64,000 bases of DNA from an uncultured Fibrobacteraceae bacterium (GTDB taxonomy: Bacteria; Krumholzibacteriota; Krumholzibacteriia; LZORAL124-64-63). Below the pieces are notes generated by a model. It searched no databases. It saw nothing but the letters and a program-made list of their open reading frames with translations, and had not been told where the DNA came from. The position numbers and the translations under genes were made by a program. The stretch spans positions 31,679 through 95,678 of the forward strand of contig CAZLHO010000005.1 of the NCBI GenBank assembly GCA_964559455.1, given 5' to 3'. Below, piece by piece: positions 1 to 34,917 of this stretch (within the stretch, counting starts at the first letter, position 1; each line of letters starts with the position of its first letter).

Positions 1-2963
1 ACGTCGTCCGCGCTGAACGGTCGGATCAGCGCCAGGGTCCAGGCGTCGCCGGCCGCCGGCGGCTGCACCGGCGGGGGCGCCGACGGATCCAGCCGCAGGC
101 GCCAGGTCACTTTGGGCACGCCGGGTTCCTGCGCTATGTAGGTCACCACGTCGATCACTTCATCGGTCCGGCTGATGGTGCCGTCGCCGTCGCGATCGCG
201 GAAGCGGAAGTCCAGGCGCAGGTCCTCGGCGACCGAGTGGGCGATGACCTCGAATCTCGCCGGCGTGGCCGGGTACGTGAACCCGTCGGCCACCGACGTG
301 TCCACGACGGTGTCGTGGAAGAGGACGGTGATGTCGTCGGGGAAGCCCGGACGAACGCGGTTGACGGGCAGCACGCTGGGCTCGTATTCGACCACGAGGC
401 GGGCATCGGTGGGGCTGCCGGGCTGGAAGCCCGTCAGGGCGGTGTCCACCTCCACCGACGCCCCGGTCTGCACCAGGGGCAGCAACCCGAGACCGACCGG
501 CCCGACGCCCAGCCCCGCGAAGTCGTCCCCGTATTCGAAGACCGCTTCGCCGGTGGTGACGTCGGTCAGGATGTAGGCGCGGGCCCGCAGGCTGTCCGGA
601 CCGGGCGTGGCGAAGGTGATGCGGAAATGATGGTCGTCGGGCACGATGTTCGAGTTCACGACCTCCACGGCCACGGTGCCGGAGCCCCGGCCCGCCACTG
701 CGACGGCCTCCGCCGCACTCGCCGGCATGTAGCCCTGGACACGCGGATTGGGCCGCACCTCGACCACGTTGGTCGGCAGCACCAGGCCGCCCCGCGGGGT
801 GCGCGACGGCGCGATGGCGTTCTCGGAGGGATAGAAGTTGAAGGCCTCCGATCCGAAGTCGTAGGCCGTGACCGCGTAGTAGTACTGCTGGCCGTTGGTA
901 ACGGTGTTGTCGGTCCAGGTATGGGCCAGGCCCGAATCGGTGCCCAGGTAGTAGGCCACCCCCTCGATGACCTGATCGGAGAAACCCCTCCGTCCATCGA
1001 CGAGGTCGAACTGGGCGATGGGCTTGCCGTTGCCCAGCGGCCCGCTTCCGGTGCCCGTGGTGATCACCTGGGGATCGCGGAAATCGGGATCGGTCGAGCG
1101 GTAGATGCGATAACCCTCGAAGTCGAATTCGTTGGTCACGGGGTCGGCCCCGTGCTCGGCCACGTCGTCCCAGGAAAGGCGCACGTATCCGTCGCCGGCC
1201 TCGGCGGTCACCGTCGGCGTCCGCGGCGGCACGGCGAAACGGTAGTTGGCGTTGTAGATCTGCTGGACCGTCTGGGTGTTCTGCGCCAGTTCCGTCAGGT
1301 CGGCGCCGTAGGCCAGGGCCAGGCTGAACCGCTCGGTCTTGCCGGCCTCGAGGCGGAACGGTCCCGAGGCGAACAGGAAGCCGATGTTGTAGTTCGAGGC
1401 CAGGGGCTCGTCGAACCTCGCGTCCGGATCGGGATCGGAGAACTGGTCGTACAGGCGCTCGGGCCAGTTCTCGTTGCCCGTGAAGAACACGATGTCGTCC
1501 GTCTCCTGCTCGGGGTTGCCGTAACCGGGCAGGATGCGGTTGAGCTTGAATCCCGTCAGGCCGATCTGGTCGGACTCGTTGAGGTCGGTCTGGTCGAAGT
1601 TCGGTTCACCCTCGGAGGGAATGCCGTCGCCCTCGCCGGCGTCGCCCGTGTCGGGCAGGCCGTCGGCGCCCAGGTCGTGATTGTCGACGGTCCAGTCCAT
1701 GTCCTCGTCTCCGGTCCACCACAGGCCGGCGTTGTAGGCCGGCGTCTCGGTGACCGGACCGTAGGTGATCTCGAAACGGTCCTGGCCGTAGTTGGCCGCG
1801 ACGTGGGCGAGGATCTGGTCCTGGCCCACGATGGCCGTCCCCGGCCCGCCGTCACGCCGTTCGTCCGTGATGCCGTCCTCGTCGTTGTCGATGCCGTCGG
1901 TGGAGTTGCCGGGAGTCTCCATGTAGGCGTAGCCCAGGTATCCGGTGCGCCCGCACGCGCCCGACAGGTCGCGGCCGTGTCCCCGGTTGTCCCAGGTGTA
2001 GACCAGGTTGATGATCTGGTCGTTGAACTCGCGGGCGAAGAAGGCGTTGTCGTCGTCCGATTCGTAGATCTGGTCGCAGGAGAAGGCCGACCCGCCCACG
2101 CCCGAGTCCATGTACAGGCCGAAGATGATGTTGTCGTCGTAATCGGTCGTGCCCTCGTTGGTGATGTCGTAATGCCAGAAGATCACGTTGCGGGCCTGCG
2201 GGTTGGCCCACTGGAAGCCCCGCACCTCGATGCGCAGTCCAAGCCCCTTCCGCGTGGGATCGCGGCTGTCGGGAACGAAGTTCCAGGCGTCGTAGTAGTC
2301 GTCGTCCAGGACCATGTAGCTTTCCTGGTCGGCCACGATCTGCTTGCCGAAGTAGCCGTTCCAGGAGCCCGCCCAGCCCGGGTCGTCGAAATCGTCGAGC
2401 CTGTCCGGCCAGAAATCCGGCCAGGTGCGCGGGTCGTTGCTCAGGGCGGGCGACCTGCCGGGGTTGAGTCCGGGATCGGCCTGGAAATAGCCCGGCCGCG
2501 GCTCGAAGCGCATGACCCGGTTGAAGTAGGGGCTGGTGCCCTGCCGCTCCCGGAAGCCGGTCTCCATGATGAAGGCCTCGGTGCCGTCGAGCTGGGTGAT
2601 CTTGGCCAGGACGAAAGGCGTGACCCCGTCGCTGTAGTTCATTCCGCTGCCCTTGGGCACCTCGACGGAGTGGAAGACGCTCAGATCGACATTGCCCGGA
2701 TCGCGCGGGTAGTCGCCGACCATGCCGTAGTTCCAGAAGACGGTGCGGATGTTGTTGGCGTCATGCTGGCCGGAACGCTCTGCGTCTTCGCGGCCGCGCT
2801 GGTCCTGGGGCACGGGGGTCACCACGTCCCCGGCCGCCGTCGCGGCCAGGACCAGGGACATCAGCAAGACCAGCACCCACGACCGCGTCACCGCCCCGGA
2901 TGCCCTCGGGAAAGATCGCCGGCAAGAGGCCATGCTGTCACTTCTCCTGTGCCTGTGGAACAT
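1..2963 (-). CDS. Large secreted protein (>987 aa, runs off the left edge) with Asp-rich Ca-binding-like motifs and an FN3-like domain; TBDR-associated
   Basis: Absent from the ORF track because no stop lies in the window. Manual translation is open from ATG 2963 to base 1. Hydrophobic signal (VLVLLMSLVLAATAAG); GIDNDEDGITDE; DLGADGLPDTGDAGEGDG; FN3-like PTVTAEAGDGYVRLSWD...FEGYRIYRS...YYYAVTAYD. Starts 11 nt after the TBDR stop. Confidence 0.85.
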   Translation of the reverse strand, partial: MFHRHRRSDSMASCRRSFPRASGAVTRSWVLVLLMSLVLAATAAGDVVTPVPQDQRGREDAERSGQHDANNIRTVFWNYGMVGDYPRDPGNVDLSVFHSVEVPKGSGMNYSDGVTPFVLAKITQLDGTEAFIMETGFRERQGTSPYFNRVMRFEPRPGYFQADPGLNPGRSPALSNDPRTWPDFWPDRLDDFDDPGWAGSWNGYFGKQIVADQESYMVLDDDYYDAWNFVPDSRDPTRKGLGLRIEVRGFQWANPQARNVIFWHYDITNEGTTDYDDNIIFGLYMDSGVGGSAFSCDQIYESDDDNAFFAREFNDQIINLVYTWDNRGHGRDLSGACGRTGYLGYAYMETPGNSTDGIDNDEDGITDERRDGGPGTAIVGQDQILAHVAANYGQDRFEITYGPVTETPAYNAGLWWTGDEDMDWTVDNHDLGADGLPDTGDAGEGDGIPSEGEPNFDQTDLNESDQIGLTGFKLNRILPGYGNPEQETDDIVFFTGNENWPERLYDQFSDPDPDARFDEPLASNYNIGFLFASGPFRLEAGKTERFSLALAYGADLTELAQNTQTVQQIYNANYRFAVPPRTPTVTAEAGDGYVRLSWDDVAEHGADPVTNEFDFEGYRIYRSTDPDFRDPQVITTGTGSGPLGNGKPIAQFDLVDGRRGFSDQVIEGVAYYLGTDSGLAHTWTDNTVTNGQQYYYAVTAYDFGSEAFNFYPSENAIAPSRTPRGGLVLPTNVVEVRPNPRVQGYMPASAAEAVAVAGRGSGTVAVEVVNSNIVPDDHHFRITFATPGPDSLRARAYILTDVTTGEAVFEYGDDFAGLGVGPVGLGLLPLVQTGASVEVDTALTGFQPGSPTDARLVVEYEPSVLPVNRVRPGFPDDITVLFHDTVVDTSVADGFTYPATPARFEVIAHSVAEDLRLDFRFRDRDGDGTISRTDEVIDVVTYIAQEPGVPKVTWRLRLDPSAPPPVQPPAAGDAWTLALIRPFSADD

Positions 2964-2974
2964 CGGTCCTGCCA

Positions 2975-5617
2975 TCACTTGCCCCCCCATCCCCAGCGCA
3001 CGCCGAATTCCAGCCGGCGAGGCTGATAGAGACGCGTCGGATCCGCCAGGGAGACCAGTTCGCCCGGACTCGGGAATCGGGCGTAATAGGGGCTGCCCGT
3101 CGTCGCATAGACGGGACCGTTGAAGTAGCGGGTGTCGAACACGTTGAAAACGCGCAGGAACACTCCGCCCCGCCCCGAGGGATCCAGGATCCACTCGCCC
3201 CGCAGGTCGACCAGGATCGCGGACGGCTTGGTGCCCGAATTGGTCGCCGCGCCGAAACCGAACGCCTGCTCGGTCTGGGGGGTGTACCGCTGGCCGCTGG
3301 CCGCCTTGGCCACGCAACTCACCGAATACCTGCCCGGCCGGTTGTACGATGCCGTCAGGTTGAGGGTGTGCGTCTGGTCCCAGTTGAAAGGCACCAGCCT
3401 GGGCCGCGGGTCCTCGCCGGCGGCCGCCCGGTTGGCGGTCTCGCTGGGGTCGCTGGCGTTGCCCAAGGCCCGCTGCAGGGTGTAGTCGAGGGAAAGCATC
3501 AGGGGGCCGACCTGGCGATAGTCGATGGCCAGGGTCATCCCGGTGATGCTCCCGAAGTCCACGTTCGTCAGCCGCGCATACTCCGCCCCGGTGTAGGTCT
3601 CGACGAACTCGACGCCCAGCAGGTCGCGCACATCCTTGTAGAAGAAGGTCAGGTCGAAGCCCAGGTCCCGATTGAGAATCTGCTTGTAGCCGATCTCGTA
3701 CTGCACCGTCTTCTCGGGCTTGACGTCGGGGTTGCCGATCATGCCGTAGGAAACCGTGCCGGCCTGCAGGCGCGCCAGGATGTCGTAATCCGAGTTCGCG
3801 AACATGGTGCCGATCGAGGGGAACTGCGTGAAGTGCCCGTAGGCGAAATGGATGGCGGCCTTGTCCTCGATGGGATAGGCCACACCCAGGCGGGGCGACA
3901 CCGTGGTCTTGACGGAGGTGTCCTGCGGATGCGACGGCGGGGCGCCATCGATGGCGTTGGCCGGATTGGCCAGGTCGCTGGGTATCGTCGACTGCGCGTC
4001 GAAATAGTCGAGGCGCGCGCCGTAGCGGACGATCAGGTCCTTGCGCTCGAACTGGTCCTGGACGTAGGCGGCGCCCATCACCGGGAATTTCAACGCCGGC
4101 CCCGGGTAGTCGGGCGGCTCGTCGAGGTGGCGCACCAGGGTGCCCTCTCCGTAGGTGAAATGCATGTCGTTGCCGAATCTCACCTTGGGCAGGCTCAGCT
4201 CCATGCCGGTCTTCATCTGGTGCTCGGGGTTGAGCTGGCTGACGACCGCTCCCTTGAAGAGGAAGGCGTTGGTTTCCTGCAGATAGTGGTTGGTCTGGAC
4301 ACCCTGGTAGTAATAGTCGCCGTTGGTTCCGGAGTTGCTCAGCTGGAGGGGGTCGTCGTAACGGGAATCGTAGGGATCCTCGTAGAGGTAGTCCTGATAT
4401 TTGAAGTAGTTCTGTCGCAGGCTGAGGTCCAGGAAGGTCTTGGCGCCCAGGGTCTGCGTCCAGTCCAGGCCGTGGGAGATGGAGAACGAACGCTGGATCG
4501 ACAGCGCATCCGGCATGAACCGGTACGCGTAGGAGTTGGGTCGTCCCTGGCGCTCGTTGAAGACCAGCTGGTAGCTGATCTTCGAGTTGGCCAGCGAGTT
4601 GTTCGCAAGCTTGACCACCCCCGACCATTCGTCGTTGTAGCCCAGGGGCATCGTTTCCCCGTCGCCGGTGGCGACGAAGGTTCCGGTGCTGTCCTCCCGG
4701 TCGGTCGGATTGAACCGGCGCTCGGCATAGACATAGTCGTCGAACAGGGAGCGCCGCCCGCTGACCAGGAAGGTCGTGTCGGGCACCGGCAGGGGGCCGC
4801 TGAGCGTCAGCTGGTAGTTCTGCGTGCCGGTCAGGTGCGGAGTGTCGTCGGTGCGCCGCGCCTCCTCGCGCCCGGGGAAGAAGAAGCCGCCGGCGAACAC
4901 CTCGGCGTCCGCGAGGAATTCATCGGTTCCCTCCTTCAGGACGGCGTTGACCACGCCGCTCATGGCCTGGCCGTATTCGGCGTCGAAGGTCCCGCTGATC
5001 ACCTGGACTTCCTGCAGGAGCGAGCGGTCGATCTGCAGGCTCGAAGAGTTGTCGAAGGCGTTGTTGACGCTGACTCCGTCGACCTGGTACTGCACCTCTT
5101 CCTGGCGTCCGCCCCGGAAATGCCCGTCGACGACGCCCGCCTGCAGGTTCACCACGTCGTCCAGGTTCTGGACCGGCAGACTCTCGATTTCCTCCCTGGT
5201 CAGGCTGGCCTGGGAGCTGGTGACCTTCAGGTCCACGGGCGGCCGCTCGGCGACCACCACCACCTCCTCGGCCCGCAGCGTCGTATCGCCCATCTTCAAC
5301 TCCAGGCGGGTGGCGCGATCGGCGGAAACGACGACTTCGCTGATCGTGATCGCGTTGAAGCCCAGGCGGCTGGCCTTCACATCGTACGTGCCCGAAGGCA
5401 CGTTGAGGATGTTGAAATTCCCCTCGTTGTCGGTGTAGGCCCCCAGGCGGGTGCCCGCCACGATCACCGTCGCCGCCACCACCGGCCGGCCGTCGGAGTC
5501 GATCACCTGACCGGTGATGGTGCCGGTGGTGCCGGCCTCGGCGGTGACGGGCGCCTGGACAAGACACACGACCGCCAGGATCGCCATGACATACGCCACG
5601 CTTTGCAGTCTCGTCAC
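2975..5617 (-). CDS. TonB-dependent receptor with N-terminal carboxypeptidase-regulatory-like domain
   Basis: GTITGQVID...ATVIVAGTRLGAYTDNEGNF N-domain; plug region with SGTFDAEYGQAMSGVVN; barrel motifs SPRLGVAYPI, PDVKPEKTVQYEIG; ends PRRLEFGVRWGW. Start placed at GTG 5617 behind GGAGG. Confidence 0.93.
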   Translation of the reverse strand: MTRLQSVAYVMAILAVVCLVQAPVTAEAGTTGTITGQVIDSDGRPVVAATVIVAGTRLGAYTDNEGNFNILNVPSGTYDVKASRLGFNAITISEVVVSADRATRLELKMGDTTLRAEEVVVVAERPPVDLKVTSSQASLTREEIESLPVQNLDDVVNLQAGVVDGHFRGGRQEEVQYQVDGVSVNNAFDNSSSLQIDRSLLQEVQVISGTFDAEYGQAMSGVVNAVLKEGTDEFLADAEVFAGGFFFPGREEARRTDDTPHLTGTQNYQLTLSGPLPVPDTTFLVSGRRSLFDDYVYAERRFNPTDREDSTGTFVATGDGETMPLGYNDEWSGVVKLANNSLANSKISYQLVFNERQGRPNSYAYRFMPDALSIQRSFSISHGLDWTQTLGAKTFLDLSLRQNYFKYQDYLYEDPYDSRYDDPLQLSNSGTNGDYYYQGVQTNHYLQETNAFLFKGAVVSQLNPEHQMKTGMELSLPKVRFGNDMHFTYGEGTLVRHLDEPPDYPGPALKFPVMGAAYVQDQFERKDLIVRYGARLDYFDAQSTIPSDLANPANAIDGAPPSHPQDTSVKTTVSPRLGVAYPIEDKAAIHFAYGHFTQFPSIGTMFANSDYDILARLQAGTVSYGMIGNPDVKPEKTVQYEIGYKQILNRDLGFDLTFFYKDVRDLLGVEFVETYTGAEYARLTNVDFGSITGMTLAIDYRQVGPLMLSLDYTLQRALGNASDPSETANRAAAGEDPRPRLVPFNWDQTHTLNLTASYNRPGRYSVSCVAKAASGQRYTPQTEQAFGFGAATNSGTKPSAILVDLRGEWILDPSGRGGVFLRVFNVFDTRYFNGPVYATTGSPYYARFPSPGELVSLADPTRLYQPRRLEFGVRWGWGGK

Positions 5618-5695
5618 CAGGATCCTGCCTCCGATTGGACGGGGAAAGTCGATCACGCCGGGGGGGCGGCCTTGCCTCCCCGCGAGACTCGACTT

Positions 5696-7579
5696 CTACT
5701 TCACCAGGACGGCCTTGCCCGCCAGCGACACGTGCTCGCCTCCGGTGCCGGGGTCGATGAACCGCAGGCGGTACAGGTACACGCCGGCGCTGGGCCGCTG
5801 GCCCGTGAACAGTGATACGGTGTTCTCGCCGTCATTCATCAGGCCCAGCTTGCGCCGTTCGACCAGCATGCCGCGCACGTCATAGATCTCCAGGGTCACC
5901 AGGTTGCGGTCGGGCATGGCGAAGCTGATCTGGGGCCTCGACGACGGACCGGCGTAATGCAGCAGCCGCGCATAACCGTCGTAGGGGATGACCGGGTCGC
6001 CCACGGCGGTGACGTCGGGCACCAGATGCCCCCAGCTGGGGCAGCAGGTTCCCGGAAATTCACGATACCACCAGGTGCGCGTTCCGTAGCTGTCGGTGGT
6101 CGGGATGAAGGAATCGCCGTCGAGATGGACGACGCCGAAGAAGAACGCACCGTCACCCAGACCGCCGGGATAGCCGAGGGCCTTCAGATCGAGGGCCATT
6201 TCGGCGGTGTATCCGTTGTCCGCCTGGGAGCCCAGCGTGTCCACCGTCGTGCCCGCCGGCAACCAGACGGCCACCTCGGCGTCGCCGGATGTCACCAGGC
6301 TGAGCAGGTCGTCCTGGGGCAGCGCCGTGCCGTCGGCCGCCACCTGGAACGACAGCCTCTTCACCAGCAGGGTGTTGTCCGGTCCGCGGTTGGCCAGATC
6401 CTCCGCCGTGACGATGAACCCGTCCCAGCGATTCAGGTCGGGGTGAAATTGGACGACCTGGTCGCGGGCCTCGAAGCCCATGTAGAGCATGTCTCCCCGG
6501 TGGTAGACCTTGACCGTGGCGTCGGCCGGATCGAGCACGAAGGCCTCGCCGCCGTTCACCGTGGGTTGGAACTGGCCGGCGCGGTAGGGCCCGATGCCGT
6601 CGTAGCTTTCCCGCAGGACGTCGTCATCCCAGCGGATATCGAAGCTGTAGACATCCGGCGAACTCCACACGGCCTCGGCCAACTGGCCGTCGATCGCGGG
6701 CACCTCGTTGATGGCCGGCACGACCACTTCGGGCTCGATGGTCGGCACCACGCCGGTGGCCGTCGTCACATCGGGCCGAGCGTGGATGCGGACCTCGCTG
6801 TACCACGAGGTGTTGCCCCAGGGGCCCTGCCACCAAACCCGGTTGGAGCTGAAACTCGAGACGCTGATGGGCCAGAACCAGTCGCAGTCGTAGACGGAGA
6901 CGTTCCATTCCACGATGTCGCCGCCGGCCTGGGTCACGTCGTAGCCCATGGGTGTCAGGTTGAAGCGCATTTCGATGGTGTAGCCGGTGTCCGGGGTCGA
7001 ATCGTCGTTGGTCACACCGTCGACCACGGTGACCGCGTCCCAGGCGTCGATCTGTTCGGGAGTGCGCGGTGAGCCGTGGGGAAGTTCCGCCCAGACGCCG
7101 ATGAAGCCCGGCAATGTGCCCACCGGCTGCGGCTCGGCCAGTTCCTCATGCCACCAGGTGTACATGTATTCGTTCTGTGGCTTGGGGTACCCCGGCTCGG
7201 CATGGTTCTTCATGCCCATGAGCAGACCGTCGAACCGGTTGAACTCGACGCTGCCGCCGATGGACTGGTCCAGGACGGTGGCCGCCAGGTAGAGCTGGTT
7301 TTCGTAGACCAGGAACTTGAGCGTGGCGTGGGTCGGGTCGATGGGCTGCCAGCCGCTTTCGGTCTTCCAGCCGCTGCCGGGGACACCGGCATCGACGGCA
7401 TACTCGATGACCACCGACTCGGCCAGGGCCCACCCGGGCTCGTCGAGAACACCGTCCAGGGTGATGGGGTCCAGCGCGGTCCGAGCCCAGATCGCGTCCT
7501 CCCGCGGGGCCTGGGCCATGGCCGGGGCCACGAGGCCCAGAGCCGCGCACAAGAGCAGAGTCGTAATCGTCGTTCTCAT
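5696..7579 (-). CDS. Secreted protein with two CBM9/DOMON-like sugar-binding domains and an FlgD/T9SS-like C-terminal domain
   Basis: Signal peptide (LGLVAPAMA). Two repeats starting ITLDGVLDEPGW and PAIDGQLAEAVW, each with a GYT(I/A)EM motif; C-terminal LEIYDVRG...AGVYLYRL. Confidence 0.75.
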   Translation of the reverse strand: MRTTITTLLLCAALGLVAPAMAQAPREDAIWARTALDPITLDGVLDEPGWALAESVVIEYAVDAGVPGSGWKTESGWQPIDPTHATLKFLVYENQLYLAATVLDQSIGGSVEFNRFDGLLMGMKNHAEPGYPKPQNEYMYTWWHEELAEPQPVGTLPGFIGVWAELPHGSPRTPEQIDAWDAVTVVDGVTNDDSTPDTGYTIEMRFNLTPMGYDVTQAGGDIVEWNVSVYDCDWFWPISVSSFSSNRVWWQGPWGNTSWYSEVRIHARPDVTTATGVVPTIEPEVVVPAINEVPAIDGQLAEAVWSSPDVYSFDIRWDDDVLRESYDGIGPYRAGQFQPTVNGGEAFVLDPADATVKVYHRGDMLYMGFEARDQVVQFHPDLNRWDGFIVTAEDLANRGPDNTLLVKRLSFQVAADGTALPQDDLLSLVTSGDAEVAVWLPAGTTVDTLGSQADNGYTAEMALDLKALGYPGGLGDGAFFFGVVHLDGDSFIPTTDSYGTRTWWYREFPGTCCPSWGHLVPDVTAVGDPVIPYDGYARLLHYAGPSSRPQISFAMPDRNLVTLEIYDVRGMLVERRKLGLMNDGENTVSLFTGQRPSAGVYLYRLRFIDPGTGGEHVSLAGKAVLVK

Positions 7580-7636
7580 GAGGTTACCCCCCGTTGACTG
7601 CTTTGGCCGCAGTGGAAAAGAGAAATGGCGGACGGC

Positions 7637-8671
7637 CTAGCCGGTGCCGGCCTTATCCCCTTCCTCCCCTCCCACACTGGCTCCACTGGAAATCCGGACC
7701 TTGAGTACGGCCGGAATCACCACGCGCACCGGTTCGTCGCAGTGACCGGTATTCAAGTCTCCAAGCAACAAGCCCACAGCCTGGCTGCCCATGCCGCAGG
7801 CATCCACGTGAACGCTTGACAGGGGCGGATTCAGATAGCCGGCGATGGCCACGTCGTCGAATCCCACGACGGCCAGGTCGTCCGGCACGCGAAAACCGGC
7901 GCGGTTCAGGGAGGCCAACAGCCCGATGGCCATGCTGTCGTTGGCGGTGAAGACCGCCGATGGCCTCGGCCGAAGGGCCATCAGCTCGGAACCGGCCTCG
8001 AAACCGGTGCTTTCGCGAAAATCCCCCTCGACGATCACCGCCCGATCGGGATCGAGGCCCGCGTCGAGGAATGCCTGACGGAAGCCCTGCAGGCGCTCCT
8101 CGGCGTCCACGTTGCCCTTGGGGCCCGAAATGAAGGCGATCTCGCGATGGCCCAGCGACAGAAGATGCTCCACCGCCTGCTTGGCGCCGCCGAAATTGTC
8201 GATTCCCAACGAGTGACAGCGCTCCACGGGGGCGCGGGGACTGAGCAGCACCACGGGGATCCTCCGCCGCACGCGCTCCACCATGTCGATGGATTCCTCG
8301 TCCGGCGCCATCATGATCAGCCCATCGATGCGGCCAAGCATGGACCGGGTGGCGGCGAGCACATCCGCGCTGCTGGAATGGGAACTGGAAAGCAGGATCT
8401 GGAAGCGGCTGAGGCGGGCCCGTCGGTCCATGCCGCGGATGACATCGGAATAGAACTCGCCGAACAGGTCCGGCAGCAGCACGCCGAATGTGCGGCTGCA
8501 GCGGGTCGCCAGGTTCTGGGCGGCGCTGTTCGGCCAGTAGTCGAAGCTCGCGGCCACCCGCACTACGCGTTCCGCAGTTTCACTGCTGACCAGGGAGTTG
8601 TTGTTGAACACCCGTGAAACCGTGGCGATCGAGACTCCCGCAGCGCGGGCCACATCGCGGATTGTTGCCAA
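7637..8671 (-). CDS. LacI-family transcriptional regulator
   Basis: HTH ATIRDVARAAGVSIATVSRV; sugar-binding domain with DNFGGAKQAVEHLLSLGHREIAFI and VVGFDD. Start inferred at TTG 8671; upstream starts are possible. Confidence 0.93.
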   Translation of the reverse strand: MATIRDVARAAGVSIATVSRVFNNNSLVSSETAERVVRVAASFDYWPNSAAQNLATRCSRTFGVLLPDLFGEFYSDVIRGMDRRARLSRFQILLSSSHSSSADVLAATRSMLGRIDGLIMMAPDEESIDMVERVRRRIPVVLLSPRAPVERCHSLGIDNFGGAKQAVEHLLSLGHREIAFISGPKGNVDAEERLQGFRQAFLDAGLDPDRAVIVEGDFRESTGFEAGSELMALRPRPSAVFTANDSMAIGLLASLNRAGFRVPDDLAVVGFDDVAIAGYLNPPLSSVHVDACGMGSQAVGLLLGDLNTGHCDEPVRVVIPAVLKVRISSGASVGGEEGDKAGTG

Positions 8672-8763
8672 GGCGGTACTTTCAGGTGGTGGTCCCGCAG
8701 CCAATCCTGCGACTCGTGGGGCCCTGCCTTCGATTCGGCGGACAGTCCTCGGTCCGATCACCA

Positions 8764-8777
8764 TGTAAACGGTTTCA
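8764..8777. promoter_or_regulatory. LacI-family operator, TGTAAACGGTTTCA
   Basis: Exact match to the TGWAANCGNTTWCA LacI-family palindrome, in the divergent region between the LacI gene and GH94. Confidence 0.75.
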
Positions 8778-8790
8778 TAAATCCAGAATC

Positions 8791-8812
8791 TTGTCAAGCG
8801 CCTCTTTGACAA
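8791..8812. promoter_or_regulatory. Inverted repeat TTGTCAA-N8-TTGACAA giving back-to-back TTGACA hexamers
   Basis: TTGACA on + at 8806-8811 and on - at 8797-8792, in an AT-rich divergent intergenic region. Matching -10 boxes are not clear. Confidence 0.45.
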
Positions 8813-8896
8813 ATCGGGAAATATGATCTAAGGATAGGCTCCCAAGGGCGGCGGACCCCTCGGAAACGACCCTATGCCCGGAAGGATGATTTCACC

Positions 8897-11800
8897 ATGC
8901 CCAGGGCCGGAAACTCCGCTCCCACCCCTCCGGCAGAATGGCCGGCTGCCGTAGCGGTGCTGGCGGGCGGGCGCGACGGGCCCGCTGCGGGCTACGTGGT
9001 CCTGGCCACCAAGACCGGGACCGGCTTCTCCTCCCTGGGCGAGACGGCCCTGACCACCTGGGAAGGGCCAGGCACCGCCGGTCTGCGTTTCTTCGTCCGG
9101 GACCTCGACGGCGGAGCGTTCTGGTCGCCGGGGCGGGTCGGGGCGGCCCTGATCGAAGCGCGCGGGACTCCCGGATCCTTCACCCTGGAGCACACTGAAA
9201 ACGGCGTGCGGGTCACTGTGGAGACTTGCGTCCTGGCCGACCGCCCGGCCGAGCTGCGGCGCATCACGCTGGCCGACCTTTCGGGAACGGCCCGCCGTCT
9301 GGAGGTGACCTCGCTGGCCGAGGTCGTGCTGAACCACCCCGAAGCCCATGCCTCCCATCCCTCTTTCTCCAAGCTCTTCCTCCAGACCGAACACGTGGCA
9401 AGCGAGCGGTCCATTCTGGTCCATCGGCGCCCCCTCGACCCCAACCAGACCCACCCCACCCTGATCCACGCCCTGCTGGAACGGGGCGAAGTCGAGGTCG
9501 AGACCGACCGGGCCCGGTTCCATGGCCGCGGCCATCATCCAGAACGACCGGAGGCGCTCCTGTCGTTCGATGCGCTGTCGGGCACGACCGGAAACGTGCT
9601 GGACCCGGTCGTCAGCCTCAGGCGAAAGCTGACGATCGCCGCCGGCGGGTCGGCCACGACGACCTTCCTGCTCGGGGCTGCGGCTGACGCACCGTCGGCC
9701 AGGGCCCTGTCGGCTGCGTTGGACGAGACGCAAGCCATCGATCGAGCCTTCACGGCCGCCCGGGCGGAGGGGGCGCGCCGGTTGGCCGAACTGGGCACTT
9801 CCGCCGCAGAGCATGCCTACGCCCAGCATCTGGCGGCGGCCATCCTGCGGAGGGATCCCGGCCTGCGCGCCGAGCCCGCCGTCTTGGCCCGTGCCGGCGG
9901 CGATCCCGCCGGCCTGGCCGACCTGGGAATCGAGCCGCGTCGGCCTTTGGCGATCGTGCGATCGGACCGGGCGACCACCGAACGGATGGGGCGGATTTTC
10001 CGTTCCTGGCGATCGCTCGACCTTCCCATCCAGCTGGCCGTGCTGACCGACGACGAAGCGGTCGCCTGCCGCGAACCCGGGAGCATCCATCTGCGCCCGG
10101 GGGAGCTCACCCCGCTCCGGATGGATCTGCTCCTGGCGACCGCAGCCCTGGTGATCACCGATTCCCCGCCGGCCCTGACGGCTCTGGATCCGCCCGCGGC
10201 CGCCGCCCCGTCCCCCGGCCACTCTCCTGTTGCCGAGGAGCCGTTTGCGAAGAACCTCGGCTTCTACAACGGGTGGGGCGGCTTCAGCCCGGACGGGCGC
10301 GAGTACGTCATCCACGTCACCAGTGAAGCCGGCGGCAACCTGCGTCTGCCGCCGCGCCCCTGGATCAACGTGCTGGCAAACGACAAGCTGGGCTGCACCA
10401 TCAGCGAGACCGGCGCCGGCGCCACCTGGGGCGGAAACAGCCGTGAGCATCGACTGACGCCCTGGTTCAACGACCCGCTGCTGGACCCCCATGGCGACGC
10501 CGTCTACCTGCGCGACGAGTATTCCGGCACCTATTTCTCCTGCCTGCCCGGCCCGGCGCCGGCGGGGGGCCACTATGAGATCCGCCACGGCCACGGCTAC
10601 ACGAGGTGCCTTCGCTCCGGTGGATATCTTGCGGTCGAGACTCTCGTCTTCGTCGACCGCCGCGAACCGGTCCGCATCTCCAGGATTCGGGTGACCAACC
10701 GCAGCGATGACCCGCGCCTGCTGTCCCTGTTCTCCTTCAGCCAGCTCGTTCTCGGCGGCCTGCCGGAATACTGCAGCCGCTTCGTCGTCACCTCGCACGA
10801 TGCCGAGAGCGGGGCGCTGCTGGCCCGCAACCGCACCGCCGGTCCCTTCGCCGGGCATTGCGCCTTCGGCGCGGTGGTGGGTGACGATCATATGACGGCC
10901 GTGCACCACAGCGGAGACCGGACCGCCTTCCTGGGGCCCGGCGGCGACCCGACCGCTCCGGAAGCTCTCGGGTCGCCACATCTCGACGGTTGTTCGGGCC
11001 CCGGGCTGGACCCCTGCTTCGCCCTGCAGGCGACTCTGGCCCTGGCCCCCGGCGACACCGCCGAGACCTGGGTGCTGCTGGGACAGGAAGAGGACAGGGC
11101 GAAAGCCCTCGAACTGGTGGCCGGATTGGGGGTCCCGGGAGCCTGCGAGGCGGCCTGGCGCGCCACCCGGGATTCCTGGCGCCGAGACCTCGACGGCATC
11201 CAGGTGCGGACCCCGTCCGCATCCCTCGATCTGATGGTCAACGGGTGGTTGGGCTATCAGACCCTGGCCTGCCGCATGCAGGGACGTTCGGCGCTGTACC
11301 AATCGGGAGGCGCCTTCGGCTTCCGCGACCAACTGCAGGATTCGCTTGCCCTGATCGCCTTGCGGCCCGAGCTGACCCGCCGCCAGATCCTGCTGCACGC
11401 CGCCCACCAGTTCGTCGAGGGCGACGTCCTGCACTGGTGGCATCCTCCCTCGGGCCGAGGCATCCGTACTCGTTTCGTCGACGACCTTCTCTGGCTGCCC
11501 CTGGCCACGGTGGAATACATCGGCGCCACCGGCGACCGGGGAATCCTGTCGGAACAGGCCTCCTACCTGACGGCGCCCGCCCTCGAGCCGGGCCAGGACG
11601 AGGTCTTCCTGCAGCCGGAACCCGCCGGGGAGTCGGCCGACCTGTACGACCATTGCTGTCGCGCCCTGGACCGCTCCCTGGCCCGCGGAGCCCACGGGTT
11701 GCCTCTTTTCGGAACAGGCGACTGGAACGACGGCATGAACCGCGTCGGCCGCGAGGGCCGGGGCGAGAGCGTATGGATGGGGTTCTTCCTCGTGAAGATC

Positions 11801-12742
11801 ATCGACGGCTTCCTGCCGCTTTGCCGGGTCCGCGGCGACCAGGAGCGCGAAGCCCGCTACGGACGATTCCGCGACGAGCTGGTCCGGACGCTGAACGACA
11901 CGGGCTGGGATGGCGACTGGTATCGCCGCGGCTATTACGACGACGGTTCCCCGTTGGGCTCCTGGGAGAACAAGGAATGCGCCATCGACGCCCTGGCCCA
12001 GGCCTGGTCGGTGCTTTCGGGCGTGGCCCCGCCGTTCCGCGCCCTACAGGCGATGGATGCCGTCGAGGAGCATCTCATCGACGATGATCAACGGCTGATC
12101 CGATTGTTGACGCCGCCCTTCATCGATACGGACCACGACCCCGGCTACATCAAGGGCTACGTGGCCGGCGTCCGGGAGAACGGCGGGCAATACACCCATG
12201 CCGCGCTGTGGGTGGTGCGCGCCATGGCCGCCCTGGGCCGGCGCAATCGCGCCGCCCCGCTTCTGGACCTGATCAACCCGATCTGCCATGCGGCCGACCC
12301 GCAGATGGTGGCGCGCTACCAGGTGGAGCCCTACGTGGTGGCCGCCGACGTCTACGGCGCGCCGCCCCACGTGGGGCGCGGCGGCTGGACGTGGTACACC
12401 GGGTCATCGGGATGGATGCTGCGGGTGGCGCTGGAGTCCGTCCTGGGCCTGAGCTCCGAAGGGGAAACGCTGGTGATGGCGCCCTGCGTACCCGACGATT
12501 GGCCCCGATACTCGATCATCTGGCGGGTGCCTCCCCGGGGAGGCGACAATCCCGACGACCCGACGACCTATGAGATCCAGGTCGCCAACCCGGAACTCTG
12601 CTCGGAGGCCGTGCTGGCGGTCACCTGCGACGACCGCCCCTGTCCGCCCGTCGGCGGCGTCGCCCGCGTTCCCCTTTCGCGCGACGGCCGCACCCACCGG
12701 ATCACCATCACCCTGGGCCCGCGGCCCGAGACCGGTCCATGA
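8897..12742 (+). CDS. GH94 glycoside phosphorylase of the Cgs/NdvB C-terminal type; probable beta-1,2-oligoglucan phosphorylase
   Basis: QSGGAFGFRDQLQD, HWWH, catalytic GDWNDGMN, ENGGQYTH, GRGGWTWYTGS; two N-terminal beta-sandwich domains; no signal peptide. Substrate inferred from GH144 context. Confidence 0.88.
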   Translation: MPRAGNSAPTPPAEWPAAVAVLAGGRDGPAAGYVVLATKTGTGFSSLGETALTTWEGPGTAGLRFFVRDLDGGAFWSPGRVGAALIEARGTPGSFTLEHTENGVRVTVETCVLADRPAELRRITLADLSGTARRLEVTSLAEVVLNHPEAHASHPSFSKLFLQTEHVASERSILVHRRPLDPNQTHPTLIHALLERGEVEVETDRARFHGRGHHPERPEALLSFDALSGTTGNVLDPVVSLRRKLTIAAGGSATTTFLLGAAADAPSARALSAALDETQAIDRAFTAARAEGARRLAELGTSAAEHAYAQHLAAAILRRDPGLRAEPAVLARAGGDPAGLADLGIEPRRPLAIVRSDRATTERMGRIFRSWRSLDLPIQLAVLTDDEAVACREPGSIHLRPGELTPLRMDLLLATAALVITDSPPALTALDPPAAAAPSPGHSPVAEEPFAKNLGFYNGWGGFSPDGREYVIHVTSEAGGNLRLPPRPWINVLANDKLGCTISETGAGATWGGNSREHRLTPWFNDPLLDPHGDAVYLRDEYSGTYFSCLPGPAPAGGHYEIRHGHGYTRCLRSGGYLAVETLVFVDRREPVRISRIRVTNRSDDPRLLSLFSFSQLVLGGLPEYCSRFVVTSHDAESGALLARNRTAGPFAGHCAFGAVVGDDHMTAVHHSGDRTAFLGPGGDPTAPEALGSPHLDGCSGPGLDPCFALQATLALAPGDTAETWVLLGQEEDRAKALELVAGLGVPGACEAAWRATRDSWRRDLDGIQVRTPSASLDLMVNGWLGYQTLACRMQGRSALYQSGGAFGFRDQLQDSLALIALRPELTRRQILLHAAHQFVEGDVLHWWHPPSGRGIRTRFVDDLLWLPLATVEYIGATGDRGILSEQASYLTAPALEPGQDEVFLQPEPAGESADLYDHCCRALDRSLARGAHGLPLFGTGDWNDGMNRVGREGRGESVWMGFFLVKIIDGFLPLCRVRGDQEREARYGRFRDELVRTLNDTGWDGDWYRRGYYDDGSPLGSWENKECAIDALAQAWSVLSGVAPPFRALQAMDAVEEHLIDDDQRLIRLLTPPFIDTDHDPGYIKGYVAGVRENGGQYTHAALWVVRAMAALGRRNRAAPLLDLINPICHAADPQMVARYQVEPYVVAADVYGAPPHVGRGGWTWYTGSSGWMLRVALESVLGLSSEGETLVMAPCVPDDWPRYSIIWRVPPRGGDNPDDPTTYEIQVANPELCSEAVLAVTCDDRPCPPVGGVARVPLSRDGRTHRITITLGPRPETGP

Positions 12743-14103
12743 CCGCTTTCCCCCGGAATTTCCTGTGGGGCGCCGCCACCTCCGCCCACCAGATCGAGGG
12801 CTCCCCCCTGGCCGACGGCGCGGGTCCGAGCAACTGGCACCTGTTCACTCACCTGCCGGGAAGAACCGCCAACGGCGATACCGCCGACGTCGCCTGCGAT
12901 CACTACCGGCGGTGGCCCGAGGACATCGGGATCATGAGCGAGCTGGGCTTGCAGGCCTACCGTTTCAGCCTGTCCTGGAGCCGCATCCTCCCGCACGGGA
13001 CCGGCGAGGTGAACGCCCGGGGACTGGACTTCTACGAGCGCCTGGTCGACGCGTTGCTGGCGGCGGGGATCCAGCCGATGCCCACCCTCTTCCATTGGGA
13101 CCTGCCCGCGGCCCTGGACGAGCGCGGCGGCTGGGTCAATCCCGACAGCGCCGGCTGGTTCGCCGACTACGCCGAGGTTGTGTTCCGGCGCCTGGGCGAC
13201 CGCGTCCGGCGCTGGACCACCTTGAACGAACCCTGGGTGATCGTCGACGCGGGATACGTTCACGGCGTCCATCCCCCGGGACGCATCGACCTGACCGAGG
13301 CCGCCCGGGCCGCCCACAACCTGCTGCGCGCCCACGGGCAGGCCGTCCGCTGCTTCCGGGCCAACGGAAGCGGCGAGATCGGCATCGTCGTCAACCTGGA
13401 GCCCAAGGATCCTGCGAGCGGCACCGAGGCCGACAGGGCGGCGGCCGGACGCGCCGATGCGTACATGAACCGGCAGTTCCTCGACCCTCTGCTGCGGGGC
13501 CGCTACCCCGAGGAACTGGCGGAGATCTACGGCTGCGACCTGTCCGATTCCCCGCCCGCGGACTTTACGCTGATCGGCGAGCCCGTCGATTTCCTGGGTC
13601 TCAACTACTACACGCGATCGGTGAACCGGCACGACCCCGAGGCGGCCCCCGTTTTCGCCTCGCCGGTGAGGCGACCGGGCGCCGAGTACACGGAGATGGG
13701 CTGGGAGGTGCATCCGGAGAGCCTGGTCCGGGCGCTCGTGTGGTTGAAGGAGCGCTACGGCGACCGGCCCATCTACATCACCGAAAACGGCGGCGCCTTC
13801 AAGGACCCCGAGCCGGATGCACGCGGGCGCGTGTCCGATCCCCTGCGCCGGGGATACATCAGGGACCACCTGCTGGCCGTGCGCGAAGCGATGGCCCTCG
13901 GCGTGGACGTGCGCGGCTACTTCGCCTGGTCCCTGCTGGACAATTTCGAATGGGCCTGCGGCTACGACAAGCGGTTCGGCCTCGTGCGGGTGGACCCGGC
14001 GACCCGTGATCGGACGATCAAGGACAGCGGTTGGTTCTACCGGGACGTGATCGCCGGTCGAGGCGCGGTGCTCGACCGGGATGAAGCCGCACCCGGGCGA
14101 TAA
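12739..14103 (+). CDS. GH1 beta-glucosidase (cytoplasmic)
   Basis: FLWGAATSAHQIEG, YRFSLSWSRI, TLNEP (acid/base), ITENG (nucleophile), WSLLDNFEW; ATGA overlap with GH94. Confidence 0.96.
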   Translation: MTAFPRNFLWGAATSAHQIEGSPLADGAGPSNWHLFTHLPGRTANGDTADVACDHYRRWPEDIGIMSELGLQAYRFSLSWSRILPHGTGEVNARGLDFYERLVDALLAAGIQPMPTLFHWDLPAALDERGGWVNPDSAGWFADYAEVVFRRLGDRVRRWTTLNEPWVIVDAGYVHGVHPPGRIDLTEAARAAHNLLRAHGQAVRCFRANGSGEIGIVVNLEPKDPASGTEADRAAAGRADAYMNRQFLDPLLRGRYPEELAEIYGCDLSDSPPADFTLIGEPVDFLGLNYYTRSVNRHDPEAAPVFASPVRRPGAEYTEMGWEVHPESLVRALVWLKERYGDRPIYITENGGAFKDPEPDARGRVSDPLRRGYIRDHLLAVREAMALGVDVRGYFAWSLLDNFEWACGYDKRFGLVRVDPATRDRTIKDSGWFYRDVIAGRGAVLDRDEAAPGR

Positions 14104-14140: not shown

Positions 14141-17100
14141 CTAGGGCTTCCAGCGGACTTCCACGGGCACCGTCCCCACGACCACCCGGCCCGCGGCGTC
14201 CTGGCGCGCGGGCGCCTCGTCGACGGTCGCGGTCAGGCCGGCCGCCGGAGGGTCCAGCAGCAGCCCCCCCGAGGGGAGGGCGAACCCCTCGTCGATCTTC
14301 ATCACGACATCGTTCCCGTCGCGGAACAACCGGTAGCCCAGCCTGCCGTAGGGAGTGGGCAAGCGGTCGACGACCAGCCCGCCGTCCTCGAGCCATGCCG
14401 CAGGCACCCCGGCCGCCAGCACCAGCGCCGCGGACCCCTCGTCGCCATCCCGCCGTTCATACGCGAACATGTCGAGCAGGCTGCGCATGTAGTCCGACCC
14501 CACCCACGTGTGGGGCATGTCGCCGATGAAGCGGGCGGTGGTCGTGTCGCCGACGACCACCTCGGCCCACTGGCGCCAGCCGAGCGGCGTGCGATGATCC
14601 AGGAAGAACGCCAGCAGCTCCTGGACGCGATCACGCCATCCCAGACGCACGAAGGCGCCGATCGTCCGGATCTCGTAGGGCGTGAAGTCCTTCCAGGGCT
14701 CCCCGGCGGCGCGCGCGCTGAAGAAATCCCAATAGCGCGCGAAGGTCCGCTCCAGGGCGCCCGCCGGCAGGATGTCCTCCGCCGCGGCCGGATCCAGGGC
14801 GATGGTCGTCGAGGTCGCGTCGAAGTCGCCCAGGTCGGCGCAGCCGGGAACGTAGTCGATGCCGTGCCTTTCCATCGCCGCGGCCACCGAAGCGCCGAGG
14901 TCCCGGGAGAACCGGTCGCGCAGGGCGCTCAGGCGTTCGCGCTCGACCACCAGGCCGTCCGGGCCGCCGACCGCCAGTTCCGCGGCCAGCCAGGCCGCGT
15001 CCTTCAGGCCGCGCAGGGCGAAGAAGTCGTCCCAATAGGAATGCATGGGCTTGGCCGAATAGCCCTCGTGGCTGATCGAAGGGGGCAGGATGCCGTAGTA
15101 TTCCCGCTTGTCGGCGGTCCGGTACTCCCCGGTCCTCCGCTCGTCCAGCAGCGATTCCAGGTACCGTACGCCGGCCAGCACCCGCGGCCACATGACCTCG
15201 AGCAGGGCCCGGTCGCCGGTAAAGCGGTAGTGTTCGGCCACCAGGAAGATGAATTCCCCCGTGGAATCGTGCTCGGGCACCGGATCGGCCCCGCGCCGAT
15301 CGACGACGCAGGGGATCTTTCCGTTGTCGTACTGGTGGGGCGCATACCATTCCAGGAAATCGCGCACCGCATCGGCATGCCCGAGGCGCAGCAGCGCCGC
15401 TCCGGTGAGGGAGCCGTCGCGGATCCACGAGCGCGCATACGACCGGGCCCCGGGCTGGATGGCCACCCCTGCGCGGTTGACCAGGACCCAGCCGAGCTGG
15501 GCTTTGAGCGTGGCGATGGCGTCTTGCGCGGCCGGCGGGCCCTCGATCACCACCCGGTCGCGGGCGGCCCGCCAGGCCGCCCCGGCCCGGGCCGTCGCGT
15601 CGACCCAATCGATGTCCTCCGGAAGCGGCGAGGCCTCGTGCAACGGCAGCAGCACCTGCACTCCCGCACCTTCGCCGGGCTCCAGGCCCAGCCGATAAGC
15701 CACTGCGGCGGAGGCGGCCCCGAACGGGTCGTCGACCGCCTGCGCGCCCGGCAGCCGGCCCGCCCTCAGATGGTCGGCCACCACGTCCCCGCCGGCGAAG
15801 GTGACGGCTCCGAAACCGTCGGGCTCGCAAAGCAGGCCCACCCGCGGCCGCCCGTCCACCAGGAGCGTGCGGCCGTCGCGCGCAACGCTCCCCACGCGCG
15901 CGGTGCCTCCGCGGACGTTCAGGAACTGCACCGGCGGGTTCACCTGGAAGGGCCGCAGGGCCAGGAACAAGGTGACCGAGTCGGCCGCCGCGCCCCGGTT
16001 CTCCACCACGTACCGCGCCAGCAGCGACGAGCGCTCCGGCAGGCCCGTTCCCAGGGCGGAGATCCGCAGGCGCCACGGTCCGCTTTCCCACGTCACCCAA
16101 GGGAGGGGCAGGTCGTCGTCCGACAGGCCCCGGGTCGCGGTCACGTCGTCCCAGGTGAGCAACCGCCCGTCGGTCCACAGGAAGGGCTCCAGCGAGAACT
16201 CGCCCGGCCCCGCTTCCAGGGCCCCGTCCGCGCCCAGCAGCCCCTCGCGCGAATCGCGGTCCGCCCCGACGACCGTCCAGGCGGTGGGCTCGCCCAGGAA
16301 GCCCCGCGGGTACACCCCCCTTGGAGCCTCCTTCGCGATGTTCATGAAGAACGTCTCGCGCGTGGTGGACCAGTCCAGGGGCCGCAGCACGAGTTCAGCG
16401 ACCGCCGGCGGCGGTGCGCCCTCATCCGGCAGCGGGCGCAGCCGCAGCCATTCCGATTCGGTTTCGGGCAGGAAAAGGGGGTCCCGCCCCCCGTTGCCTC
16501 CGGTGACGACCGACTGCGTTCGCCACGTGCGCCCGTCATCCGAGGTTTCGACCAGGTAGTCGGCGACATGCCGCCCGTCCGCCCAGACCACGGTCAAGCC
16601 GCCGTACTCGCGTGGCCGCCCGAAGTGCAGATTCAGCTCCGGTGCGGCGTCGTCGGGTTCGGGAGACCACCAGGTCGCCGTGTCCCCGTCGAGCACGGCG
16701 GCGGCCGGATGAGCCGTCGGCGCCGAACTCGCCGTGGCCACCGGCACGGGCGGCGGGCCCGCCGCGACCGGAAGCGGCACCAGTTCCAGGTCGTCGATCC
16801 ATAGCGTCCCGGCGCCGCCGCTGCCCGCGGTGACGGCGAATTCGATCGCCGCGACGTGCCGGATCTCGCCGCCGCCCGCAGGGCCCCAGGCGAACTCGAT
16901 CTGGCGCTTCTTGATCCTGACGCTCTGCCAGTCCTCGGGCCACGCGACATCCCGCAGAACGTGCCACCAGACGTCTTCTCCGCCGGCGTCGACCAGTTTG
17001 AATTCCAGGTGGTTGACCGGGGCCTCTCCCCGGAGATCGAAACGGAAGGCGTAGTTCCCGGGCAGATCGAGATCCGTCTCCAGGCGGGCGATGGCGTAGC

Positions 17101-18147: not shown

Positions 18148-18157
18148 GACGACTTCC

Positions 18158-21915: not shown

Positions 21916-21994
21916 GTCACCCTCCAAGCGTGTTTCCTCGTCCGGGAGGCGATCGACTCACAGGGTGAAATCAATCCGAATGCGTGCGGACGTG

Positions 21995-23034: not shown

Positions 23035-23100
23035 CGGCGGGGAACGGACTTCGGCAACCATCAGCAGGGAGATGGAGACGCACCGATGGCAGGAGGGCTC

Positions 23101-24948: not shown

Positions 24949-24950
24949 CG

Positions 24951-25667: not shown

Positions 25668-25670
25668 GCC

Positions 25671-26138
25671 GTGGCCACGCGCAAGAAAATCCATATCGAC
25701 ATGACGCCCATGGTGGATGTCGCGTTCCTGCTGCTGATCTTCTTCATGACGACCACCCAGTTCAAGCCGCCCGAGCAGGTCGCCGTGCAGCTGCCCCAGT
25801 CGCGTTCCGAGATCCACATCCCCGATACCGGAACCATCATCCTGACGGTCAACCGGACGGGTCAGATTTTCATTTCCAGCGAAAGGGCCGACGACACCCA
25901 GGAGCTGGCCCCGGACAACGTGGTCGAGGCGGTCGTCGCCTGGCGGGGGCGCAACCCCGGCTCGGTGGTGATCCTGAAGGGCGACAAGGACGCCGATTTC
26001 GGGGTCGTGGCCGATCTGATGGACGCCCTGGCCCGGGCCAAGACCCTGCGATTCAACCTCATGACCGATCTCAAGAAGCGCACTCCCCGCGAACCGGCCT
26101 CCGGCCCCGGCAGCCCGGTCGAATCGCCTTCACTCTAG
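25671..26138 (+). CDS. exbD: ExbD/TolR protein 1
   Basis: IDMTPMVDVAFLLLIFF; VILKGDKDADFGVVADLMD. Confidence 0.93.
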   Translation: MATRKKIHIDMTPMVDVAFLLLIFFMTTTQFKPPEQVAVQLPQSRSEIHIPDTGTIILTVNRTGQIFISSERADDTQELAPDNVVEAVVAWRGRNPGSVVILKGDKDADFGVVADLMDALARAKTLRFNLMTDLKKRTPREPASGPGSPVESPSL

Positions 26139-26150
26139 AGGAGTCCCGTT

Positions 26151-34916: not shown

Positions 34917-34917
34917 C

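Follow-up and report, generated by a model that had tools for sequence, protein, structure and literature searches.

Gene content of the locus

We analyzed a window of 64,000 nucleotides from an uncultured bacterium (contig CAZLHO010000005.1, positions 31,679 to 95,678), a high-G+C member of the Fibrobacteres-Chlorobi-Bacteroidetes (FCB) group whose closest relatives are metagenome-assembled genomes (MAGs) of the Krumholzibacteriia. The left end of the window carries the minus-strand part of an operon for glycan use, including a TonB-dependent receptor (TBDR) and a large secreted protein. The operon runs on past the window's left edge along the source contig (L001), a metagenome scaffold of 146.6 kb recovered through an exact match to the CBM9-like protein, where a gene for a PorV-like barrel follows. 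This work concerns these three components (TBDR, large protein, PorV-like barrel), hereafter called the triad. The operon comprises the following genes.

7637-8653, minus strand: LacI-family repressor, 338 aa (Pfam LacI and Peripla_BP_3; gene call made on the source contig)
[quoted passage not shown]
2975-5617, minus strand: TBDR, 880 aa (PF13620 CarboxypepD_reg, PF07715 Plug, PF00593 barrel)
3-2933, minus strand: large secreted protein, N-terminal 977 of 1,098 aa, frame open to base 3, signal peptide, G+C at third codon positions (GC3) 0.91
L001 14647-17943: the large protein at full length, 1,098 aa, its last 121 aa, including a divergent CTD-like tail, lying beyond the left edge
Beyond the left edge, 17 nt downstream of the large protein gene: PorV/PorQ-family barrel, 340 aa (NF033709)
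Beyond the left edge, after the PorV-like gene: glucanase of the glycoside hydrolase family 144 (GH144) type with Por_Secre_tail, 534 aa
L001 20723-21529: secreted protein of 268 aa without family match, last gene of the operon

The LacI, CBM9-like, TBDR and large protein genes all lie on the minus strand, separated by gaps of 57, ~78 and 41 nt. Window G+C is ~68%, a level at which long antisense open reading frames (ORFs) are common, and codon-position G+C favours the four assigned frames over the antisense ones, with GC3 values of 0.87-0.91. The initial annotation had described a co-oriented, closely spaced set of these four genes. All four were confirmed along with their orientation and spacing, although the LacI gene lies at 7637-8653 rather than within 1-7579, where it had been placed, and "giant" was an overstatement for a protein of 1,098 aa. 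It had further predicted that the large protein ends in a CTD and that a PorV-like gene follows just past the left edge. A CTD-like tail is indeed present, and a PorV-like gene is the next one after the large protein. A sigma-70 promoter and terminator scan of positions 1-9000 gave no signal above shuffled expectation. The 268-aa secreted protein is kept in Krumholzibacteriia and Eisenbacteria loci (15 loci, median identity 51%), at times in several copies (L010).

A TBDR outside the SusC family and its PorV-like neighbour

The SusC/RagA model TIGR04056 scores the TBDR at 69 bits against a cut-off of 368.25, with the match confined to residues 46-168, and SusC chains in the PDB match its N-terminal domain only. 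By NCBIfam criteria, the TBDR lies outside the SusC family. SusD families of Pfam and NCBIfam found no match among the genes scanned, which covered part of the window's ORFs and 4.4 kb past its left edge, and a lipobox was absent from all signal peptides inspected among the operon proteins. Adjoining the locus, positions 22039-26648 (plus strand) encode a PBP-like protein, a large tetratricopeptide repeat protein and ExbB-ExbD-ExbD; a TonB-ExbBD cluster also follows the cassette in locus L005. The ExbB-ExbD-ExbD cluster may be the energizing system for the TBDR.

The PorV-like protein matches the PorV/PorQ family model NF033709 at 160.8 bits (cut-off 90, E 6e-47). It falls below the PorV/PorQ equivalog cut-offs of NF033710 and NF033711, with 56.6 bits against 250 and 71 against 220. 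Paralogues of the protein reach 223-243 bits with NF033709, and the copy of a Rhodothermaceae genome matches Pfam PF19572 PorV.

The triad is conserved across phyla and among paralogous loci

One genome per species was scanned, yielding 80 loci. The six-frame ORFs of all loci were searched with the L001 proteins, neighbours were counted by stop-codon positions, and the adjacency counts take in only loci whose contig has room for the neighbour. Locus records carry the labels Krumholzibacteriia, Eisenbacteria, Ignavibacteria, Calditrichia, KSB1, Rhodothermales, Kryptoniota and "Bacteroidota" MAGs. In 70 of 72 loci the gene directly downstream of the large protein is the PorV-like one, and in 68 of 71 the gene directly upstream is the TBDR, so that the position following the TBDR is held by the large protein. 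The same order in ~70 independent loci from many phyla shows that the arrangement is not due to chance, and the triad genes overlap by 4 nt in several loci. Across loci, the identities of TBDR, large protein and PorV-like protein to their L001 copies co-vary with r values of 0.89-0.96. Median identities to L001 in the orthologous loci are as follows.

Large protein: 59%
GH144 glucanase: 51%
TBDR: 49%
PorV-like protein: 47%
CBM9-like protein: 39%
GH94 phosphorylase: 36%

No other protein of the locus is as conserved as the large protein. Exceptions to the triad number five, four of which are contig-end or frameshift artefacts, and one of which (L043) appears real. In the L043 region 537-7975, the operator described below stands directly upstream of an orthologous large protein; the gene after the large protein codes for an esterase rather than a PorV-like barrel, next comes a convergent CTD protein, and the contig leaves no space upstream in which a TBDR could be seen. 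The TBDR is split into two ORFs in L040, L042, L057 and L062, and in L057 and L062 the large protein is split as well; these splits are frameshifts or assembly errors.

Paralogous large proteins, ~35-40% identical to that of the window, retain the triad in different loci. These loci contain a LacI gene, a CBM_4_9 protein with Por_Secre_tail, the triad, an ATP-binding cassette (ABC) importer, and GH130/mannoside-type and MGH1-like enzymes, the CBM_4_9 protein with its CTD filling the position of the CBM9-like protein. One such GH130-type locus lies in the complete genome of Rhodothermaceae bacterium RA, accession CP020382.1. A KSB1 contig (L022, 1-14495) carries two complete tandem triads, the first a distant paralogue and the second the beta-1,2-glucan orthologue, and one MAG supplies two triad loci, L046 and L082. 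As paralogous triads occur in loci for different glycans, we conclude that the triad is a general module, duplicated and re-used for different glycans much like SusC/SusD pairs. In the full-text literature searched, which left out most papers in subscription journals, neither the triad nor a PorV-family barrel devoted to a transporter partner is described.

The initial annotation had expected no susD homologue beside the cassette and a steady association of the partners with this clade of TBDRs. Pfam and NCBIfam scans of the neighbouring genes agree with the former, and the adjacency counts, almost without exception, with the latter. Its proposal of an alternative architecture for a polysaccharide utilization locus (PUL) stands as well: the arrangement is SusD-less, PUL-like and built on proteins predicted to be exported by the T9SS.

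Sequence and predicted structure of the large protein

Apart from a weak PorZ-tail match, the large protein has no Pfam or NCBIfam domain. Its relatives are numerous, with 3,321 matches among word-sharing candidates; the best 120 of these are 66-89% identical over the full length, and all named members among them are "hypothetical". Of the cluster representatives in a library grouped at 50% identity, 3,513 match it at E<=1e-3, and 574 of them still do so at E<=1e-30. The tail aligns with the type A CTDs of the GH144 glucanases (hhalign probability 96%, E 4e-9), from which it differs by a ~15-residue insertion after the first strand; direct Pfam and TIGRFAM searches gave no match for it. It is less variable than the cargo CTDs (effective sequence number, Neff, 1.9 versus 4-5), and its database similarities are limited to weak ones with the CTDs of PorZ (E 0.011) and PorU (E 0.13). 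A profile search of PDB sequences with the large protein found an Fn3 motif and the PorU tail only. Neither a peptidase C25 nor a sortase domain was detected by Pfam and NCBIfam, and the PorU match is confined to the tail in the profile search against the PDB. An identity as a divergent PorU was rejected because peptidase similarity is lacking.

A full-length model built with 33 close orthologues is poor for residues 1-560, with a mean predicted local distance difference test (pLDDT) score of 58.6, and confident for residues 570-1096, which form Fn3/beta-sandwich domains and the CTD-like tail. Foldseek matches of this model were generic Fn3/Ig repeats with template modelling (TM) scores <0.1, and were disregarded. 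A second model, of residues 1-570 and based on aligned orthologues and paralogues, reached a pLDDT of 78 and a predicted TM score of 0.81. Its best fold matches are the beta-supersandwich regions of GH94 phosphorylases, cyclic glucan synthase, GH116, GH63 and GH15-type dextran dextrinase, at a probability of ~1.0 and a TM score of ~0.3 normalised to the query, a weak similarity that covers part of the domain. From this model, the N-terminal half is read as a putative carbohydrate-associated sandwich fold without catalytic barrel. Between residues 340 and 470 lie acidic DxDxDG-type motifs, which we take to resemble calcium-binding loops.

Enzymes, importer and regulator of a predicted beta-1,2-glucan locus

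Beyond the LacI gene, the window continues with a regulatory site and genes for glycan breakdown and uptake.

8764-8777, no strand assigned: LacI-type palindromic operator TGTAAACGGTTTCA, in the divergent intergenic region between LacI and GH94, an exact match to TGNAANCGNTTNCA
8897-12742, plus strand: GH94 phosphorylase of the beta-1,2-oligoglucan phosphorylase type, 1,281 aa (PF06165, PF17167)
12739-14103, plus strand: GH1 beta-glucosidase, 454 aa (PF00232; TIGR03356, 575.6 bits)
14141-17326, minus strand: protein of 1,061 aa with an F5/8 type C domain and a weak (alpha/alpha)6-type match (Bac_rhamnosid6H, oligosaccharide amylase)
17323-20396, minus strand: ABC sugar importer of two permeases and a solute-binding protein (BPD_transp_1 twice, SBP_bac_1)
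20389-21927, minus strand: second GH144-type glucanase, without CTD, with lipobox VSGC (PF10091, 266.2 bits)

The exported GH144 protein matches PF10091 at 273.6 bits and the characterised endo-beta-1,2-glucanases PDB 5gzh (E 3e-64) and XCC2207 (8xul; E 1e-119), and is assigned by homology as an endo-beta-1,2-glucanase. The second GH144 gene probably starts at the ATG at 21915. The GH94 protein appears closest to beta-1,2-specific members, with cellobiose and chitobiose phosphorylases reaching only ~1e-69; we infer its specificity from the best match and the locus context. In agreement with these matches, the beta-1,2-glucan substrate named in the initial annotation is borne out by homology. 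Before its supersandwich domain, the GH94 protein carries an N-terminal extension of ~430-480 aa (window 8897-10350, plus strand) without Pfam match.

For the 1,061-aa protein with the F5/8 type C domain, the PDB contains no relative by sequence. Many orthologous loci encode it, among them beta-1,2-glucan loci of Ignavibacteria and Calditrichia, a recurrence that makes it a candidate for a new family of beta-1,2-glucan-active enzymes.

Of 86 related loci, 48 have the LacI-type operator motif; where its position was checked, it sits a short way upstream of the LacI or CBM gene. The co-localization of carbohydrate-active enzymes with a regulator, all for one glycan, by which PULs are recognised is found here, with two GH144 genes, GH94, GH1 and LacI with its operator. 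Judged by its gene content, the locus is a complete LacI-controlled beta-1,2-glucan utilization system. A second exact operator match, TGAAAGCGGTTTCA (21708-21721), falls within the coding sequence of the second GH144 gene, ~16-20 codons past the lipobox cysteine. It was not counted as a promoter operator; it might act as a roadblock operator or have arisen by chance.

The CBM9-like protein and other predicted T9SS cargo

The CBM9_1 match of the 627-aa protein reaches 27.2 bits (cut-off 23.4). A comparison of the protein's two halves with hhalign shows them to be homologous (probability 99.8%, E 4e-30, ~200 aligned columns), which indicates a genuine tandem duplication of CBM9/DOMON-like domains. 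The last ~95 residues align with the GH144 CTDs of related loci (hhalign probability 99.9%, E 1e-34). The window's protein alone stays below the TIGR04183 cut-off (13.5 bits), its KSB1 orthologue matches Por_Secre_tail at 32.3 bits, and the GH144 tail of L001 passes both TIGR04183 and Pfam Por_Secre_tail. These alignments identify the tail of the CBM9-like protein as a predicted type A T9SS CTD and make the protein a candidate surface glycan-binding protein.

T9SS-type cargo is abundant in this organism. FlgD_ig or Por_Secre_tail C-termini were also found in three further proteins of the window.

27523-31083, minus strand: protein of 1,187 aa without other domain
31883-32956, minus strand: protein of 358 aa
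60140-62059, minus strand: papain-family C1 peptidase

No T9SS core genes were found among the window genes scanned. Elsewhere in the window, positions 33216-36792 (minus strand) encode two adjacent leucine-rich-repeat proteins of 567 and 624 aa with EndoS-type matches, and positions 40773-44657 encode two tandem AAA_14/DUF4143 ATPases followed by an insertion sequence-type transposase (rve_3, HTH_21).

A proposed three-component glycan importer

In Bacteroidia, substrate capture and the lid function at the transporter are provided by SusD and surface lipoproteins. The uncleaved CTDs of PorU and PorZ are retained and docked on PorV and PorQ. The account that we favour, and hold to be somewhat probable, is that the window carries a LacI-controlled beta-1,2-glucan locus in which the large protein of the triad is exported by the T9SS, docked on its own PorV-like barrel and acts as capture or lid partner of the TBDR. 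The tandem-CBM9 protein, displayed via the T9SS, would hold the glycan at the cell surface, and the TBDR would import oligosaccharides. In the periplasm these would be trimmed by the GH144 protein with the lipoprotein signal, and the ABC system would carry them into the cytoplasm, where the GH94 phosphorylase and the GH1 beta-glucosidase would complete the breakdown. Docking of its divergent, unusually conserved CTD-like tail into the PorV-like barrel of the adjacent gene would keep the large protein at the surface permanently, and the protein would serve the neighbouring TBDR as extracellular substrate-capture or lid component. Gene content, domain assignments, CTD homology, PorV-family membership, synteny, co-divergence and the operator are observed, as is the assignment of the substrate by homology; the docking, a contact with the TBDR and any role as lid or in binding are proposals, and a replacement of SusD by the large protein as lid is plausible. 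As a broader and rather doubtful proposal, FCB phyla outside the classical Bacteroidia might share a three-component glycan importer as counterpart of SusCD, made up of a TBDR, a T9SS-exported cap or capture protein of ~1,100 aa and a PorV-family barrel as permanent anchor.

Several observations speak against the favoured account. Adjacency and co-divergence are what is expected of any co-inherited operon genes, and L043 has a large protein without PorV-like neighbour. The similarities of the large protein to the PorU and PorZ CTDs have E-values above the usual significance thresholds, and the supersandwich matches (TM ~0.3) are weak and cover part of the domain only, which calls for caution. 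Median identity of the large protein across phyla is 59% (CBM protein, 39%); such conservation is out of the ordinary for a surface protein that binds substrate, and it could hint at a role as an enzyme or as part of a machinery. Finally, we infer the T9SS itself from the many CTD-tagged proteins, core genes being unseen among the genes scanned.

An enzymatic role would make the large protein a new extracellular carbohydrate-active enzyme, with the PorV-like barrel as its dedicated T9SS shuttle or anchor and the TBDR acting alone, as in proteobacterial loci with TonB-dependent transporters (TBDTs). The very high conservation is typical of enzymes, many acidic residues are invariant across the paralogues, and the N-terminal fold resembles the supersandwich domains that stand beside catalytic domains in GH94, GH116, GH63 and GH15-type enzymes. 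However, no catalytic barrel or other catalytic domain was predicted or detected in the large protein, and much of the acidic conservation falls in the DxDxDG-type, calcium-loop-like motifs. An exported endo-glucanase is already encoded in the locus, and one family of large proteins serves loci for different glycans; we regard an enzyme as unlikely. A machinery role would turn the large protein and the PorV-like barrel into a locus-specific T9SS attachment or sorting module, like PorU-PorV or PorZ-PorQ, that would process or anchor the CTD-bearing products of the operon, namely the CBM protein and GH144, instead of taking part in transport. The likeness to the porU-porV gene pair (a CTD protein of ~1,100 aa, then a PorV-family barrel), the weak PorU and PorZ CTD matches of the tail, the appearance of PorZ among the fold matches of the full-length model and the regular presence of CTD cargo in the cassettes are in line with such a module. 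Sorting would need neither the strict pairing nor the co-divergence with the TBDR, though, and neither a peptidase C25 or sortase domain nor any PorU/PorZ similarity beyond the tail was found in the large protein. Moreover, in L080 and L081 no CTD-tagged CBM gene could be recognised upstream of the paralogous triads, and sorting appears to us as improbable as an enzymatic function.

The large protein might also be a general surface structure, such as an adhesin or an S-layer-like protein, that is merely co-transcribed, or the TBDR might be an Oar-like exporter of it. Its C-terminal half consists of Fn3/Ig-like beta-sandwich repeats, as in adhesins and S-layer proteins, but each copy belongs to a glycan locus that is specific for a substrate, regulated by LacI and equipped with a TBDR paralogue of its own. 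CarboxypepD_reg-type TBDRs do include a Myxococcus protein exporter (cited in PMC9127263), yet a large protein with a predicted T9SS-type CTD and a PorV-family partner needs no TBDR for export. We consider both forms of this explanation very unlikely.

SusC/SusD uptake underlies the present picture of polysaccharide degradation by Bacteroidota. In the many other FCB groups abundant in sediments, soils, aquifers and oceans, among them Ignavibacteria, Calditrichia, Krumholzibacteriota, Eisenbacteria, Marinimicrobia and Rhodothermia, the outer-membrane step of glycan use is essentially unannotated. If the broader proposal of a three-component importer shared by FCB phyla is true, PorV-type proteins would gain a role outside secretion, and a second kind of PUL, widespread and with paralogous copies that serve different glycans, would stand beside the known one. 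As a transporter complex, the triad would provide a marker for PUL-like loci outside the Bacteroidia, link T9SS display to nutrient import and give a function to many PorV paralogues. Culturable carriers of the triad exist, for example Rhodothermaceae bacterium RA with its GH130-linked copy and Ignavibacterium album with a beta-1,2-glucan copy, which makes the idea directly testable.

Comparison with known systems

TBDT-containing glycan loci without SusD are known from proteobacteria; these carbohydrate utilization loci containing TBDTs (CUT loci) are not known to have T9SS components. Closer in content is the beta-1,2-glucan (SGL/SOGP) cluster IALB_1177-1187 of Ignavibacterium album, for which, in the passages devoted to it, the enzymes were studied and import via a TBDT was only speculated (PMC8861115). 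As described there, it shares with the present locus GH144, a SOGP-type GH94 phosphorylase, a beta-glucosidase and an ABC binding protein, and a TBDT was postulated without SusD. Those passages on IALB_1177-1187 make no mention of a large protein, a PorV-like barrel or a CBM9 protein (PMC8861115). The orthologous loci recovered here include I. album MAGs.

Type B CTD cargo is encoded beside PorP/SprF-like anchor proteins (PMC9143113). Both there and in the triad, a T9SS cargo gene adjoins a dedicated outer-membrane barrel that anchors, or in the triad would anchor, the cargo at the surface, whereas the triad differs in having a PorV/PorQ barrel, a putative divergent type A CTD and a transporter partner. 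With the PorU-PorV and PorZ-PorQ pairs of Porphyromonas gingivalis, the triad has in common a large protein, here with a CTD-like tail, paired with a FadL-like barrel of the PorV/PorQ family, and the tail of the large protein is weakly similar to the PorU and PorZ CTDs. Unlike PorU and PorZ, the large protein lacks a peptidase or PorZ-like domain, and the triad is present in at least two copies in some genomes (two triads on one contig, two loci in one MAG), each beside a TBDR within a substrate-specific, LacI-regulated glycan operon.

PULs of Bacteroidota are regulated by hybrid two-component systems or SusR. The present locus differs from them in its LacI regulation and in ABC uptake at the inner membrane. 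It also has no SusD homologue, its TBDR stays under the SusC/RagA cut-off, and its partner proteins bear predicted T9SS CTDs instead of lipoprotein signals, with a PorV-family barrel added. The likeness is one of overall design, as both types of locus place in one regulated operon the genes for a TonB-dependent importer of the outer membrane, for proteins that bind glycans at the surface, for an endo-glycanase outside the cell, for trimming in the periplasm and for enzymes of the cytoplasm. The CarboxypepD_reg N-terminal domain of the TBDR is also found in SusC, and in both systems an invariant, co-evolving partner gene lies directly downstream of the transporter.

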